The notes below the pieces were generated by a model. That model did no database searches. It saw only the letters and a program-made list of their open reading frames with translations, and had not been told where the DNA came from. The position numbers and the translations under genes are program-made. A DNA stretch of 64,000 nt, taken from assembly GCF_036971445.1 (NCBI RefSeq), contig NC_091476.1, positions 165,974,001-166,038,000 of the forward strand, read 5' to 3'. Source of the stretch: Narcine bancroftii (taxonomy: Eukaryota). Below are positions 2,700-32,471 of the stretch, one piece after another (position 1 is the first letter of the stretch; every line of letters begins with the position of its first letter).

Positions 2700-5110
2700 C
2701 ATGGGTCTGACACACACATCATTGAGTTCACCCATTCTATGGGCTCCTCCACTTTCTTTATGATGCCTAGTGACACCATTTGGTCAAGTTCCTGCTTGAA
2801 CTTGTCTTTTAGTGTGTTGAAACCTGCCTTGGGGCATAAACTCCTGGGTGTGCATCCTCCTTTAAATGTATCATTTAGGTGAGTGGTCGAACAATTCCCT
2901 TGAAGATGTCTAGAAATTGATCCAGTATTTCCTCTATGCCAGTGTTTACCAGATCCCAGGGGTTTCCACAGAAGAAGTGGGGTGTAATAACTAACTAGCA
3001 ATAACAACTTTTCTTTAAACTACTTTTTACCTGTGTCTTTAAATCTTTGTGTTTTTGCAATGGCAGCAAACAGATGCCTTGACCGAAACAAAACAAAATG
3101 GCGTCTTAAGGCTTGATATCAGCAGTGTATATTTCAGGCTTCAAGATGTCATTTTCAACAAATGAGACTCGCATTTCTTTTGGTGCAAGGCTGGCCACAT
3201 TTTTAAACAAAGATATTCCACGTGTGCAATACAGCAGGAATGTCTTTTGCTGACTCTCTGTAGTTTTTGAGTTCCTCCTCCCTTCCTCTCACTCACTCCC
3301 TGCCCCTCCCTCTTGCTCACTCTCTTGCACCACTCCCCACTCACTCACTCCTTAACCCTCTCACTCACTTCCTCCTTCCCCCCCTTCCCACTTGCTGAGC
3401 TTGGTGTGGGAACTGGTGATAGAGTCGGGATCAGGAACTGTGTTGATTGAGGTGTTGGTGTCTACGGTATGTTTGCAGCTGGGGTCACCGCGGAGGCGAC
3501 AGTTGCTCCAGCAACTGGTCGGCTGGGATGGGGTTTAGCGATGAAGGTGTTGGAAGCTCAAGTCTGCAGGTAGCAGGGGTCGGGATGCAAAATCACATTG
3601 GAGACATCAGGAGCGCTCCATCTGTGGGCAGACGGGGCACAGGTGGATACCTGCATCTGAGGCATTGGGAGATCTGGGCTGCAGGCAGCTGGGGATGGGT
3701 TGGAAACCCAGTTCTGGAAGGCTGGTGATGGTGGGCATTTGGGGATTGGGAGGTCGGTGATATTTGTGTTTGCAATTTGATTAATATTCAGTTGAAACAA
3801 AATAATCAAATTCTTAAGAAATAGGATTTTTGAATGCACTGCCTCAGATTGCTTACCTTTTAAGAAAAATAATTTAATTTAAATTAAATTCAACCACACT
3901 TGAACTGGAAGTTGACACTATTCAACTTCCAGCCAACTTCTGGTTTGTAACTATGGGGTTCTGCGATTTCCAAGTACTCCCCAAAAAGGTTTCATGTGCT
4001 AAAAAAGTTTCAGAAGCCCTGCTCCATGCTGTTCTGTGCATTGGTGCCATTAATGCTGTACACCCCCTTGACTAGGCCTAAGTTTTCACATGCTTTGTCA
4101 CCAAGCCGTGAGCCATGTCCATATGGGACTACTGCAAGCATGAGGTGGTTCTCTTTATCTTTAACTTTCACCTTGAGTCTACATGTGCCTTTCATGTCAA
4201 TTGTAGGCATTGAGCTGAACAGAATTTGGATGGATGTATGGCTTTACCTTCATTGCTCTGATGTCGCGGTCACAGATCAAATTGACCTTTGCCCCTTGTC
4301 CAGCTTGAAAGGAATATCTGATCAATTTGCGTGCAATGACACATTCCACTTGTCCTGCTCAACTCTGTTCACACTTGGCTATTCACTGAGGGCAGTTTCC
4401 TCTATAGTGTGAACAGTTTAACTTCTGTTTTGTTTCCCTTTGCATAGTTACACTTCTTTGCACTTGTTACAGACTTTTCCATAGGCTGGGCATTGTTTTG
4501 TTGCATGTTGAGTGCCACAGCATTTACAATTGAATGTCTCTCTGTCCTTTGTTTTTTTCTAATATCTCATTCTGTTTATGTATGCGTCCAGATACTGTGG
4601 CTACAGCTATGTGTTCTTTTTCACTGTCCCTTGGACTCGCACCAAATTTTTTCACTGCTGCAGAGATAATTCACTGGTGTGGGATATCTTCAGAGCTCCT
4701 GCTAAGGTAAGCTCCGTCTTTTGTAGCAACCTCTCTCTCACGTTCTCGTCAATAATTCTGAACACAATTTGATCGTGGATCATTGAATCTTGCAGCAATC
4801 TAAAATTACACGTTCTTGCTTTCAATTTCAAGTCCATTAAAAAATAAGCCTGCAACTGTGTGTGTGATTGAGACACATATCTTTCAAATGTTTCATTTTT
4901 CTTTGGTGAACAGTGTCCATCAAACATCTTGATAACCTTGTTGATCTTTCCCTGGTCAGCTGCCTCGGCAAAAGCAAACACCTTGAGAACATCTAGTGCT
5001 TGAGATCCTGCCATGGCATGTAGCAGTGCAATCTTCTGTGTGTCCAGTTTGGTATCAAATCCAATGGCTTGCAGATACAGCCTGAATCATTGTTTGAACA
5101 ACTGCCACTC
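2700..5110 (-). mobile_element. Degenerate Ty3/Gypsy gag-protease-start of RT, interrupted by a hAT element
   Basis: gag HCSPKKNETFERY...IHDQIVF...RERLLQKTELTL; zinc knuckle near 4450-4530; protease end LGDKACENLGLVKGV; RT-proximal LKDKFKQELDQMVSLGIIKKVEEPIEWVNSM. Confidence 0.85.
2940..4021. mobile_element. Non-autonomous hAT-like DNA transposon inserted in Gypsy pol
   Basis: Ends are CAGTGTTTACC and ...GAAGCCCTG. 8-bp TSD ctctatgc (2932-2939) / ctccatgc (4022-4029). Removing it rejoins pol as NSMEEILDQFLDIFKG. Confidence 0.7.
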
Positions 5111-5329
5111 ATGGCCAACATTACAAGTTCAATTCTTTGCCAAGGCACCCACAACGCCTCCCTCACCACAGTCCGGGGACCAAAACAGGACTTTCAAGCG
5201 AAGCAACACTTCACTTGTGCATTTATTGCATCCGGTGCTCCCTTTTTGGCCTTCTCTACATCAGAGATGGGGCTCAGATTGTGAGATCGCTTTGCTGAGC
5301 ACCGTCGCACCAGCACCAGAGGCCTCTCA

Positions 5330-6648: not shown

Positions 6649-6723
6649 CAGTTCTTTTATTTGTTTACATTGTGTACAGTTTATTTTTGCTCTACTAATT
6701 AGTGGTAATTCTGCTTTGCCCAC

Positions 6724-8378
6724 TTGAACGAGGTCAAATGTGTGTTCAACGCGACAGAGCTACCCATTCTGGGCTGCATGGTCCACAAGGGCAAAATCCA
6801 CCCCAACCGGAAAGAATGGCCCCCCTTAAGAAGTTACCACCCTCAGTCTCAGCAAATGCCCTTAAAAGATGTATGGGATTCTTTTCCTACTACTGCAAAT
6901 GGGTTCGGGAGTACGCCACGAAAGCACGCCTTCTTGAAGGCTTTCGAGAGAATTAAAGCTGATATTGCCAAAGCTGAACTCTTATCCATTGACGAGGATA
7001 TGCCATTCCAAATGGAAACTGATGCCTCAAGATAGTGCCTTGGCAGGAACCCTTAATCAAAATGGCAGACCTCTGGTACTCAAAGCTCTGGAGGTCAGTC
7101 TCATCAAGGCAACCCGACCCTTTGAGAGGATTAGCTTTGATTTTAAAGGACCATTATCTACCAACAACAAAAATGTATATTTCCTGACTGTAATTGACGA
7201 ATATTCCAGATTTCCTTTTGCAATAGCCTGCCCTGACTTCTCGTCGGTGTCTGACATTAAGTAACTTGACAGAATTTTCAGCATTTTTGGTTTTCCCAAT
7301 TACATTCATACCAATAGGGGCTCAGCATTCATGAGCGCTGAACTGCGGCGAGCCCTGCTACGGAAGGGGATTGCTACCAGTCATACAACCTGCAGGGCAA
7401 AGGGCAGGTGAAAAGGGCTAATGCTACAGTCTGGAAGACTGTTAAACTTGCTTTAAAAACACATGGTTACCCTGTTACCCAGTGGCTGGAGGTGCTGCCT
7501 GAGGCGCTACATTCTATTCGGTCATTATTGTGTACTGCAACAAATCAAACACCTCATGAACGTATGTTTGCCTTTGCTAGGAAATCAGGAACTGTAATGG
7601 ACTGGCCAGCCTGTTTATCTGAGCCTGGAACCGTGCTGCTGAAGAGCCATTCTCGGACGTGTAAAACAGTCCCCCTAGTCCAACCAGTTCAGCTACTGCA
7701 TACCAACCCCAACAACGGTCATGTTAAATTCCCAGACGGGAGTGGGATATCTTCAAAAGAGATCTGGCCTCGCCTGGTTTGCCCTTTCCTCACACTCCTA
7801 CTCAGAGTGAGCCTGTGACCCCTACTAAGCTTTCAGATAGCCATGCTGAGGCTCCACTGCCTCATGCTGGCGATTCTGGAGCAGGTCCAGAAGTCAGTCC
7901 TTCCCACACAACAGACTCAGGAACTGTACCAGTTCCCAAGGTTGCAAAGAAGCAACCTTTTTTTTGAGAAAAATCACCAGAATTCGTAAACAAACTGATA
8001 GGCTGACATATTCATAAAACATCTCATTATATTTTGATTGCTTGCTAGATACTGGCGTATTTTGGCTGTTAGAGTATTCTCAATGCCAAACATGGTATCC
8101 ATGCATCGCTTGCTTCAGTTTTTCCCAGCAGCTGTCCTTTTGGTTTTAACCCTTCTTCTGCTGGGGGGAGACTGTGGTGAATGTCTGCCAAGCTGCCTGT
8201 CTCCCCTCTGGCGAGCCTTGCTGTACTAACATTGGCTGTGCATTATCACTGCTGTTAAGGACACTCCCTTTGTGTATAACTGTGTAAGCACCTATTGTCT
8301 TGCATTATTGTACCATGAGTTTCTGCTAATAAAAGCCCTGATTATTGTTTGACCACATCATCTTTGTCTACTTCATCA
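6724..8378 (+). mobile_element. Degenerate Ty3/Gypsy pol (RT end, RNase H, integrase), PPT and 3' LTR
   Basis: KCVFNATELPILG; FQMETDAS; RPFERISFDFKGPL...FLTVIDEYSRFPFA. PPT ggggggaga at 8163-8171; LTR tgtggtga...catca at 8173-8378 with AATAAA. Confidence 0.88.
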
Positions 8379-20010: not shown

Positions 20011-20380
20011 CCAAAATTTTCCATTTCTACTTCTGTTTCTTCTCCTCGTCATCGCAAGACACAGAAGCACAAGTACCATATGGCATTCCATAAACTGTGC
20101 CTTCATTCAATAAGATCATGACTGAATTTTCAGCTCAACAGCTTTTCCAAACTAGTCTGTATGATAATTTTAACACTTAAAAATCAATCTCAGTGAGTTA
20201 TTATGTGAGTAAATTAGAACTACATTTCCTAGCTTACAATGCACACAGTTGCACGGAAACAGGAAGTTACATATAATGGGGGTTGTTTTTGGAAGTTGGG
20301 TGAAGCATCTCAAGGAAAATAAAGTTGCTTAAGTGTTAAATCCACGTAAAACCGTTCTTCTTGAAAGAACGAGCATAACG

Positions 20381-20394
20381 TGGTGTCAGAAGTG
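20381..20394 (+). promoter_or_regulatory. Primer-binding site (tRNA-Leu type) TGGTGTCAGAAGTG
   Basis: Directly follows the LTR end and precedes gag; a common Gypsy PBS. Confidence 0.8.
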
Positions 20395-20670
20395 TCTGAG
20401 GAATATTTTGTTTTAAAGTAAAAACATCACATTTGAGGGATTCAAGTTTTTCTCCTGTGACCAGAAACAAGGTTTGAGCTTTGACTAATACTTAGCTGAG
20501 GTTCACACACTGAGAATTTGGAGATTTAAAAAATTCACTCGTTAAAGGCAGAATAGTTTTCAGAATCCCAGATAATGGACTTAGAGAAAGACTGTGAGGT
20601 GAAAAAAAATTGACTCTAAAAAAGGCTGCGAGTGTGTGTGGTGGGGGGCAGCGGAGACCACACAAGAACA

Positions 20671-21226
20671 AGCCAAGGAGCTGCACGAGATCGATGCAAC
20701 AGCCAAGGAGCTGCACGAGATCGATGCAACAGCCAAGGAGCTGCACGAGATCGATGCAACAGCCAAGGAGCTGCACGAGATCGATGCAACAGCCAAGGAG
20801 CTGCACGAGATCGATGCAACAGCCAAGGAGCTGCACGAGATCGATGCAACAGCCAAGGAGCTGCACGAGATCGATGCAACAGCCAAGGAGCTGCACGAGA
20901 TCGATGCAACAGCCAAGGAGCTGCACGAGATCGATGCAACAGCCAAGGAGCTGCACGAGATCGATGCAACAGCCAAGGAGCTGCACGAGATCGATGCAAC
21001 AGCCAAGGAGCTGCACGAGATCGATGCAACAGCCAAGGAGCTGCACGAGATCGATGCAACAGCCAAGGAGCTGCACGAGATCGATGCAACAGCCAAGGAG
21101 CTGCACGAGATCGATGCAACAGCCAAGGAGCTGCACGAGATCGATGCAACAGCCAAGGAGCTGCACGAGATCGATGCAACAGCCAAGGAGCTGCACGAGA
21201 TCGATGCAACAGCCAAGGAGCTGCAC
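20671..21226. repeat. Minisatellite: 18 perfect copies plus a partial copy of agccaaggagctgcacgagatcgatgcaac (30 bp)
   Basis: Counted directly; a degenerate unit follows at about 21237-21268. Confidence 0.98.
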
Positions 21227-21693
21227 AAGAGACACCACAGCTATGGAGCTGCACAAGAGAAACAACAGTGCATGCAATGACAACAGATAAGCAGAGCACC
21301 AGAAATTTCCCAAAGAAATAAGCTCAAACTGCAAATGCAGCAGGTGCGTGGGTAGACGTATTCCAAAGATGTGACCTGCCTATGGAAAGTCCTGCTCTAA
21401 ATGTGGGAAGAAGAATCATTTTGCAAAGTCATGCAAAGCAGGGGATACCAAGAGAAAAGTGGACAAAGAAATGGAGGAATTCTTCAAGGATTCACTAAAG
21501 ACTGCAAAATGACGGTGAATGAATGAGTAATTCCATTTAAGCTCGAGATTGGAACCCAGGTGAATCTAATGTCACAACAACTGAATGTAGAGAGGAGAGT
21601 ACAGTCAATATTAGGTCTGGGTGCATGTGAAGAGCTTGACCTGGTGAAAAGAGTTTTTGTAGTGGCTTCACCAAATATAAGCTCACAACACTC

Positions 21694-22181
21694 ATGGAAG
21701 AAAGGATAACTACAATGGATAAGCGATACCTTAATGTACTGTGAGAATCAACCTCATTACATGATATGAACGACAAAGTGGAAAATGAGTTGGCTAATAA
21801 GGATGCCTTCTTACGCCAGCAACAAAATAAACTTGCTGAACAGAAGCTGCCGCAGACAATGAAGTGAGCAGAAATGTTTCCAGAAGAAGAACCTGAAATT
21901 GCCCAGCGAATTGCAGCTCTGACAAAGGCTGAAGAACGGCGTATTGAAACAATTAGAGACACAGCTTGAAAAACAGAATCAGGAACTACAAAGGGCCTGA
22001 CAGAGAGAAAATTAATGAATAGCACAATAGGCAACTGTCAGACATGATGGACAGATGGTTGACAAGGTCTGATGAGCAACTTCAGCTGCATCTAAAAGAA
22101 AGAATGGCTGCATTAGAGGATAAGAATAGATCAATACGAGAATTTGAACTATTGGGAGAACAACTTGATGAGTGTCTTCAT
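21694..22181 (+). pseudogene. PPFIA2: Processed fragment of liprin-alpha (PPFIA2-like) coiled-coil region
   Basis: [41 protein letters not shown]...LAEQKL...AQRIAALTKAEER...NQELQRA*QRE...LQLHLKERMAALEDKN. No introns; TGA stops at likely CGA sites, plus frameshifts. Confidence 0.88.
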
Positions 22182-23019
22182 AGTGGAGTGTTGGAAGATG
22201 CAGGCCATCTTCTTTCGACTACTGAGTTTAAAGGAGCCACTACACTGTCGGAGGAGGAGCTCTTAGCTATCGTCACCCACTGCAACATCTGTGGCCTAGA
22301 TTGTGAAGCTTGGAATAAAGCTCACGAGAGTTGTCTAATGTTGAAGCCCAGGATCAATTGCTATTGGCAAAACAGGAAGATATGAGTGGAGAGAGTGCAG
22401 AGAAGGTTTACCAGAATGTTACCTGGGTTTAAGCATCTAGAGTATAGGGAGAGATTGGACAGATTAGGTCTTTATTCTTTGGAGCGTAGAAGGTTGAGAG
22501 GGGATTTGATAGAAGTATTTAAGATTATGAAAGGGATAGACAGAGTGGATGTGGATAGACTATTTCTGTTAAGAGGAGGAAAGATTAAAACAAGAGGACA
22601 TGAGTTAAGAATTAAGGGGCAGAGGTTTAGAGTTAACATGAGGGGGAACTTCTTTACTCAGAGAGTGGTAGACGTGTGGAATGAGCTTCCGGGAGAAATA
22701 GTGGCGGCGGAGTCAATTGTATTATTTAAGAAAAGGTTGGACAGGTATATGGATGAGAAGAAGATGGAGGGTTATGGGCATTGTGCAGGGAGGTGGGACT
22801 AGAGAGGGGTGTTTGGTTCGGTGCGGACTAGAAGGGCCTAATGGCCTGTTTCCGTGCTGTAAATTGTTATGTTTTTTTTTGAATGAATATTTGGACGAGA
22901 TTGTGAAAGAAGTGGAGACGAAAGCTTCTTTTCTGAAGGGCCAGTGTGAAAAATATGAATGTGTGAAAAAATCTGTGAGAAATCTCTCAGCTAAATTAGA
23001 AGATGCCATGAAGGAAATT
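22182..23019 (+). pseudogene. TPR: Processed fragment of nucleoprotein TPR coiled-coil (22182-22385 and 22881-23019), split by CR1
   Basis: LEDAGHLLSTTEFKGATTLSEEEL...VEAQDQLLLAKQED // [25 protein letters not shown]...[12 protein letters not shown], compared with TPR [23 protein letters not shown]...VETQDQLLLEK...[17 protein letters not shown]...LSVKLEQAMKEI. Confidence 0.85.
22386..22880 (+). mobile_element. Young 5'-truncated CR1 LINE
   Basis: Intact ORF2 C-terminus ERVQRRFTRMLPG...RRRLRGDLIEVFKI...FFTQRVVDVWNELP, followed by the 3' UTR. Confidence 0.93.
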
Positions 23020-23027
23020 TTCCATTT

Positions 23028-23565
23028 AGATAACCACTTACAGCACAGAACAGGCCAGTTTGGCCCTACTAGTCCATGCCGTAACAAATCCCCACCCTCC
23101 TAGTCCCACTGTCCAGCACCCGGTCCATACCCCTGCAGTCCTCTCCTATCCATGTATCTATCCAGTCTTTCCTTAAATGTAACCAATGATCCCGCCTTGA
23201 CCACGTCTGTTGGAAGCTCATGCCACATCCCTATCACCCTTTGTGTAAAGAAATTTCCCCTCATGTTCCCCTTATAATTTTCCCCCTTCAATCTTAAACC
23301 ATGCCCTCTAGTTTGAATCTCCCCCACTCTTAACTGAAAAAGCCTATCCACGTTTACTCTGTCTGTCCCTTTTAAAATCTTAAACACCTCTATCAAGTCC
23401 CCTCTCAATCTTCTACGCTCCAGAGAAAAAAAGCCCCAGTCTGCACAACCTTTCCCTGTAACTCAGACCTTGAAATCCTGTCAACATTCTCGTGAACCTT
23501 CTCTGCACTCTCTCTATTTTGTTTATATCTTTCCTATAATTTGGTGACAAAAACTGTACACAGTA
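23028..23565 (-). mobile_element. 5'-truncated CR1 LINE
   Basis: IERVQRRFTRML...RGDLIEVFKILKG...FFTQRV. Confidence 0.92.
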
Positions 23566-31100: not shown

Positions 31101-32120
31101 CCATATCTATTTCCAATGGATGACAAAACAGTTAATGTCCTTTTTCAATCTCTGAGTTTAAATTTGGCCCATATCATAGGAAGTCAGTGTGCCTGAGTTC
31201 ACAGTTTATTGTCACAAGATCACAGCCAGAGGGCATGTGGGTAATACTAAAAATTCAATGACCTGAACACCCTTTACAGTGCCTTTCAACGTGCAGCTGA
31301 CATCATTATTTGGAATTACCAGTCCAAAGGAAGTCCAGTGAAAACTAAAAATGAAAACTGCTTAGCAGCTTTCAACCATGAGGAGAAAGAAAAAAAGAAC
31401 AACACTAGAGTCTGCAGACACCATGATTGAAATAAAAGCCCAATACTGAAGAAACTCAGGTGGTAACAAAGATCATGAAACATAACCAACATTTTAGGCT
31501 TGAGGCCTTTCATCAAGAGGCAGGGATAATGCTTCAATTCAATAACCGTTCGTGGGGTCAGGAAGATTTTGAGGAGAAATGGATGAAGGGGAATAACAAA
31601 GAGACTGTGATACTGATAAAAATCTGTAATTACAGGACAGGCAGGCTGTGATTAAATGACAGAGCAGTTAATGGTGCATCAATACAAACACAATTACAAG
31701 TGACAATCGATGCAGAGGTGAAATATGGTACATTGAGGAAAAAAGGAAACCATTCTGATCACATGGTGCTGCAATGCTTCTGGGAATGGGAAGCTGCAGC
31801 CTTCAGCCATAACAAGGAATGAACCATCAATGCAGAACTAGCAAGGTGATTTGGATTTCTGGTGTCATCTTTTCTTTCATCACACTCCCAAGCAGCTGGA
31901 GCCTTTTGCTTTCCCTTTAAAGCTGTGTTTTGTGTCCTACAGAGGACAACCTACACACTCATTTCAGGATTCAATTTAAGTAAATAATACCAGTCCAAAC
32001 AAATGTGGCTTTGTAGATTTTGTCGAGATGGTGCATTAGCAGGGTTTTAGTTGGGGGCATTAGGGTAACCATGGGGTGGGGGGGGCACTCATTCGGGGAG
32101 GGATCACAATACCTCATTTA

Positions 32121-32471
<351 letters not shown>

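Follow-up and report, generated by a model that had tools for sequence, protein, structure and literature searches.

The locus studied here raises the question of how a spliced piece of PPFIA2 (liprin-alpha-2) came to stand inside a Gypsy element, starting precisely at an ATG codon. It lies in a 64,000-nt stretch of the Narcine bancroftii genome (NCBI RefSeq assembly GCF_036971445.1, contig NC_091476.1, positions 165,974,001 to 166,038,000, forward strand); we call this whole stretch the window, and all the positions below are counted in it. The original prediction had explained the join as a template switch of the reverse transcriptase (RT) at MEE codons that could be assigned to either template, with a second Gypsy relic of the window as witness for the element side. 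We consider it likely that RT switched onto the mRNAs of both PPFIA2 and TPR (LTR-mediated capture) and that the product was then amplified as a non-autonomous element.

Upstream of the junction, the element is made up of the following parts:

20200..20380 (+), LTR-like stretch with uncertain start, directly before the primer-binding-site-like motif; presumed LTR
20381..20394 (+), primer-binding-site-like motif, the sole exact TGGTGTCAGAAG in the window
20395..20670 (+), remains of Gypsy gag with stops and frameshifts, N-terminal part missing; 43% aa identity over 37 residues to the gag of the relic described below
20671..21258 (+), 30-bp tandem array that arose from gag sequence, with 19.7 copies and 98% matches
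21390..21437 (+), gag zinc knuckle (PF00098, E 0.0028, below the curated cut-off)
21527..21664 (+), remains of the Gypsy protease, 44% aa identity over 34 residues to the relic
21665..21693 (+), linker between protease and RT in the Gypsy family; most other copies seen have a longer one

The LTR-like stretch contains an AATAAA at 20318-20323, and no partner of it was found in the window by blastn with word size 7, by nhmmer or by a repeat search. We take TGGTGTCAGAAG to match the 3′ end of tRNA-Leu. The zinc knuckle is 80% identical over 20 aa to a Gypsy gag-pol in L001, one of the three loci (L001, L002 and L003) returned by a metagenome scan, while a Pfam search of 21527..21664 gave no match for the protease. 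The Gypsy label comes from the likeness to the relic and to L001, with gag, protease and RT in order. In the window element, pol beyond the protease has been replaced. The 5′ flank of the captured pieces is an LTR element in the same sense, with the primer-binding-site-like motif, gag, zinc knuckle and protease remains. As for the surroundings, 6700-7820 (+) contains a third LTR-element relic, in which an integrase core scores below the curated cut-off (PF00665, E 1.3e-5), and at 32118-32471 (-) there is a CUB-domain exon, which we take to be CSMD-like (PF00431, E 3.9e-12). The gene of this CUB exon probably has the element within an intron, in antisense orientation.

At the junction, the Gypsy gag and protease remains stop at 21693 and PPFIA2 homology runs from the ATG at 21694. 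The protease-end peptide ACEELDLVKRVFVV is indeed present, in the frame starting at 21623, and the ATG GAA GAA placed about 30 nt after it was recovered 29 nt after the last V codon of ACEELDLVKRVFVV, as ATGGAAGAA at 21694, in a frame that opens with MEERITT. Measured from the first base of ACE in the window Gypsy, the ATG is 71 nt downstream. The PPFIA2 match begins at exactly this M (8z22_C residues 43-111, E 3.5e-16). The residues before MEER are QK[ED]D in shark and ray PPFIA2 and TTL in the window, so the host homology begins at the ATG itself. This is a start in mid-exon and mid-protein. In fact, we rejected 21694 as an exon start, the isoform edges being at 304, seven codons upstream. 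The exact 9-mer ATGGAAGAA occurs in the window only at 21694, 24285 and 34152 (-), and 42 sites on both strands lie within one mismatch of it; one of these, at 21471, is inside the same Gypsy as the junction, and MEE recurs there.

Downstream, two host pieces and two LINE fragments follow each other:

21694..22181 (+), spliced PPFIA2 piece, decayed, aa 311-488 of P0017 (a protein of 1230 aa)
22191..22381 (+), spliced TPR piece, first part, in frame with the PPFIA2 end
22383..22878 (+), LINE 3′ end inside the TPR piece, 75% identical to other window copies
22879..23028 (+), spliced TPR piece, second part, 56% identical to P0145 413-462 and 69% to P0121
23030..23564 (-), second LINE 3′ end, inverted; it cuts TPR, and the 3′ part of the element is not seen beyond it

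The PPFIA2 piece matches PF25526 and aligns to P0017 in three colinear tblastn blocks at 70-77%. It is truncated at both ends and spans the isoform-defined exon edges 352/353 and 397/398 without an intron. Summed scores were 563-602 for PPFIA2 proteins and 490-533 for PPFIA1 and PPFIA4, among ten proteins that included no shark or ray PPFIA1/4, and on these scores PPFIA1 and PPFIA4 were rejected as parents.

For TPR, P0141 352-376 aligns at 22191-22262 with a local-alignment score reached by none of 300 shuffles, while blastp of the frame at 22101 against P0141 was blank; a further block at 22273-22381 corresponds to P0141 380-399 and P0121 22-35. Overall, the piece spans approximately aa 350-465 of a protein of about 2350 aa. 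It runs across both ends of an exon where every one of the 22 short motif-bearing ORFs stops (exon end between K and V); these 22 come from 31 hits, from which 9 that were long or outside the pattern were left out. Neither the PPFIA2 nor the TPR piece contains introns, and both are in the sense of the element.

We take the LINE at 22383..22878, for which a Pfam search gave no match, to be CR1/L2-like. TPR resumes right after it at 22879, and one contig of the run X6 continues into TPR at 22382 without the LINE. The two LINE 3′ ends (22383-22878 and 23030-23564) are inverted, 74-76% alike and 159 nt apart; at the 5′ join of the first one, about five bases (GAGTG) are common to the LINE and TPR. 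Neither a 3′ LTR, nor pol remains, nor a Pfam or Rfam match was found in the window downstream of TPR; likewise, no return to Gypsy, target-site duplication or poly(A) was found there, the copy being cut by the LINE at 23030.

Other copies were sought in public contigs. Precisely, we aligned contigs from 4 of the 9 listed runs to 21250-22385 at 80% likeness. Five of the 32 records listed bridge the junction at 21694, each with 22-31 differences from the window; X7, which may be an RNA run, is among the runs with such contigs, and none of the runs listed was given as RNA. Their net lengths relative to the window are +3, +4, -2, +4 and +4. The 1-nt offset between the two frames, described in the original prediction, does exist in the window copy, but it is not family-wide, since the +4 of three of these five listed records restores the Gypsy frame for PPFIA2; in the other two (net +3 and -2) PPFIA2 is out of it. 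In X1, 42-43 contigs differing from the window cover each of 21683, 21720 and 21740. The summed X1 depth is 1100-2200 in six PPFIA2 bins and 57-609 in the others, against about 9 for window-identical contigs; a summed depth is no copy number, so we read it only as "many". Over TPR, X1 depth is 333 and 1231 at 22314-22385 versus 9-49 at 22162-22313, and the multi-copy state is less clear for the latter interval than for the former. PPFIA2 and TPR occur together in one non-identical contig each of X1 and X7 (joint from 22098 to 22289). The junction belongs to a multi-copy family, known here at the level of contigs and not of genomic dispersal. The original prediction mentioned neither this sharing of the junction among copies nor the TPR piece.

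Some further observations concern these runs. X7 has a summed depth of 13,800-41,200 over 22314-22385, versus about 100 or less over PPFIA2 and the rest of TPR; this peak is possibly one abundant unrelated contig. X5, with another organism label, has a 151-nt record at 22164-22314 that is identical to the window, at depth 2. In X6, under a third organism label, the PPFIA2 piece reaches depth 77 and shows 8 differences, and the family linker is present too.

The contigs also show parts in which the window copy is peculiar. Where the window has the 30-bp array, five X6 contigs that join at 21258 have gag-like letters, and the array seems private to the window copy. It is open in several frames (20671-21258), and its uniformity far exceeds that of the decayed element on either side. 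In the protease remains there is an internal loss near 21564-21567, with 15 X1 contigs leaving or entering at 21567 and 14 at 21564. In PPFIA2, where we compared by eye the 20 sites among those listed (a further 290 rows being outside the listing), 14 of the 15 changed codons, including the stop at 21742, regain the P0017 residue when read with the letter of the other contigs. We conclude that the founder closely resembled the live mRNA and that the window copy has since decayed, a result which is no demonstration of selection. At 22128-22130 the other contigs share a letter that makes PPFIA2 471 an Ile, which is also the residue of the three ray and skate proteins checked; the nine shark and chimaera proteins carry Met there. 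This points to a batoid as the probable host.

The relic that had been called as witness for the shared MEE codons is the following:

2702..5113 (-), Gypsy relic for comparison, of a different family, split by the insert at 2940-4021

The relic and its insert are both there, and the insert, which we presume to be hAT-like on seeing its 8-bp target-site copies, has short imperfect terminal repeats. The two target-site copies differ at one base, one giving M and the other I, so the MEE reading is obtained with only one of them. The relic shares 41-44% aa identity with the window Gypsy, in three short blocks only, and has no blastn match to it at E 1e-4; by these sequence comparisons it is a member of a different Gypsy family from the junction element, and as such we rejected it as the donor template. 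Moreover, it has the codon GAG where the window has GAA, hence it lacks ATGGAAGAA, and its M is 66 nt after ACE versus 71 nt in the window, an only roughly equivalent position. For these reasons its MEE codons make a weak witness for a shared template. Possible starts in the PPFIA2 piece that match the relic site equally well (8/9) are 8 of 479 (1.7%), i.e. p ~0.017, computed post hoc. Such a match exceeds chance only slightly and tells us little of what the true donor was. In L001, a distant Gypsy, LEEVM stands before a D-I-F-x-G motif at about 1990-2040; because it resembles the MEEIL of the relic, Gypsy linkers may loosely tend to have an acidic xEE, which would then be no chance match, on this one example.

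Evidence on the shared bases came instead from contigs that align up to the linker and then diverge, and it concerns this short segment:

21694..21697 (+), putative microhomology, ATGG at least: the PPFIA2 M-E codons on one side, apparently liprin-less contigs reading ATGG on the other

Contigs carrying the family linker have loose ends at 21671 in X1 (18 contigs), X6 (3) and X7 (3); in X1 and X7 the letters shown (30 letters visible) finish in ATGG. The loose parts have a median length of 161 letters in X7, 47 in X1 and 18 in X6. Those of X7 fit nothing in the stretch, with an agreement of 0.92, and X7 depth falls at 21671 from 286 to 41, a loss of 245 that exceeds any X7 PPFIA2 bin (<=108). 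Because of the unmatched median of 161 letters and of this fall in depth, at least two X7 contigs are best read as liprin-less sister copies. The loose ends of X1 and X6 are too short to count, and those of X1 may be short liprin-bearing contigs. This evidence was drawn from the rows listed, 415 further loose ends and 1905 further pieces being outside the listing.

PPFIA2 M-E requires ATGGA and the loose ends read ATGG, so we infer a microhomology of at least 4 nt at the Gypsy/PPFIA2 join; the nine shared nucleotides implied by ATGGAAGAA lack support. Among 200,000 random junctions of the two sequences, at least four shared bases were obtained in 2.5% and nine in 0.003%. It is therefore probably correct that the template was switched within a short shared stretch beginning with the ATG, though on grounds other than those of the original prediction: its argument from the relic does not hold, and the evidence supports at least 4 nt rather than its 9. 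The shared sequence is probably real, yet shorter and less well supported than claimed. Relatives of the donor family were also looked for elsewhere. Its proteins gave nothing at E 0.01 in a 5.8-billion collection (14 and 1 candidates), and no relatives were found in viral contigs or genome contigs. Atlas clusters included no informative one for the protease end and only liprin for the PPFIA2 part. Among the metagenome loci, L001 and L002 are distant Gypsy elements without blastn match to the focus and were rejected as the donor family, and L003 was discarded as a chance knuckle-like match.

In the process that we consider likely, RT in a Gypsy particle would leave the element RNA at the protease/RT linker during reverse transcription and would continue on co-packaged spliced PPFIA2 and TPR mRNAs. 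The Gypsy/PPFIA2 switch would take place at a short shared sequence from the ATG (>=4 nt), leaving PPFIA2 in the gag-pro frame. The product would read, 5′ to 3′, LTR, primer-binding site, gag, protease, PPFIA2 codons 311-488 and TPR from about codon 350, presumably followed by a return to Gypsy and a 3′ LTR. It would lack RT of its own, and an intact sister family would then make the many copies of this non-autonomous element, of which the window would contain one, old and decayed. The PPFIA2 start at the ATG, the intronless pieces in the element sense, the bridging copies and the ATGG loose ends support such a capture, while the 3′ LTR, the return to Gypsy and the target-site duplication, none of which was found in the window copy, weigh against it. 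On the same side stand the absence of donor sequence beyond ATGG in the letters shown and of donor-family proteins or loci in the searches above, the shortness of the X1 loose ends, the two bridging records that are out of frame and the low X1 depth over 22162-22313.

Three other explanations have to be weighed. The join could have arisen without real microhomology, the ATGG coming from short or diverged liprin-bearing contigs and the MEE of the relic being coincidental in a Glu-rich context. This agrees with the post hoc p of a match to another family, with the recurrence of MEE at 21471, with the shortness of the X1 and X6 loose ends and with one X7 contig that diverges at 21671 but fits again over 26 letters at 22034. 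The length and agreement of the X7 loose parts and the size of the depth loss speak against it, as do liprin-bearing X7 contigs with 27-28 differences that align straight across the junction (records 29 and 30). We consider it unlikely; it can, in any case, coexist with mRNA capture. A different enzyme is supposed in the second explanation, according to which the RT of a LINE (CR1/L2/RTE) made a PPFIA2-TPR chimeric cDNA that was inserted into a resident Gypsy, the composite spreading with its LTRs; the shared bases would then be the ordinary 5′-end microhomology of a LINE-type insertion. LINE pieces are abundant in the window, the telling 3′ end is absent from the window copy, and the LINE within TPR shares GAGTG with TPR at its own 5′ join, so that the enzyme cannot be told from a few shared bases. 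Both pieces, however, derive from internal parts of long coding regions (aa 311-488 of 1230 and from ~350 of ~2350) and are on the same strand as the element, and neither a poly(A) nor resumed Gypsy sequence was seen; for a LINE origin we would give quite low odds.

The third explanation works at the DNA level: end-joining or deletion would have brought old processed pseudogenes next to a Gypsy relic, and segmental or tandem duplication would have made the copies. Microhomology is typical of end-joining too, the window copy has no 3′ LTR, and contigs are unable to display flanks or dispersal. Against this, the restored codons indicate a founder close to a live mRNA and not an old pseudogene, and the Gypsy frame is kept at the join in three of the five bridging records listed. 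We regard such an origin as very unlikely. As regards RT switching onto the two mRNAs, the locus has three of the features by which LTR-mediated retrocopies are recognised: spliced mRNA, a same-sense LTR element on the 5′ side, and secondary copies that share one switch point.

Retrocopies of this kind are known in fly, mosquito, zebrafish, chicken and mammals, according to the parts of Tan et al. 2016 (PMC5131818) on which we draw for all the comparisons that follow. Fly junctions have microsimilarity in 25 of 29 cases, with a median of 6 bp, and the same source describes two-gene chimeras (e.g. CG4799_CG11924_r) and secondary copies with one common switch point. As in the window, a partial spliced mRNA takes the place of part of a retrotransposon ORF, with two-gene chimeras, secondary copies and short shared sequence at the switch, putative in the window; unlike there, no switch back to the element is visible in the window copy. 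Maize Bs1 is an LTR element with exonic pieces of unlinked host genes and the same switch points in all its copies (PMC5131818). Its donor genes number three and its copies one to five, whereas in the window family two donors, both coiled-coil proteins, have been recognised so far and the copies are apparently far more numerous. HERV-K captured spliced FAM8A1 mRNA, with microsimilarity at the joins (as cited in PMC5131818), and so is likewise an LTR element of vertebrates that took up a spliced host mRNA; it is an endogenous retrovirus with one donor, while the window has a Gypsy element with two. The mechanism of mRNA capture being already known, the shared bases alone are ordinary. A literature search, with most subscription journals and repeat databases outside its scope, returned no report of a Gypsy/PPFIA2/TPR case.

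A bolder reading is that active copies of this high-copy LTR family made an in-frame Gag-protease-liprin-TPR polyprotein and that the captured coiled coils aided its spread. Liprin-alpha-2 is a synaptic protein and TPR a protein of the nuclear basket, which binds at the pore. We hold this reading to be highly improbable; if it were true, the coiled coils could, for instance, have tethered particles or RNA at the nuclear pore, and this would be an oncovirus-like functional capture by a non-infectious retrotransposon.

What sets this case apart is the scale and the lineage, namely a two-gene capture, apparently in frame, that reached many copies in cartilaginous fish, in contrast to the one to five copies of Bs1 and the few sites per fly retrocopy in the source cited above. 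Copies of the family could inflate the counts of liprin or TPR genes in ray annotations. So many copies also allow a direct test of selection on the captured frame during the activity of the family, which single retrocopies do not.
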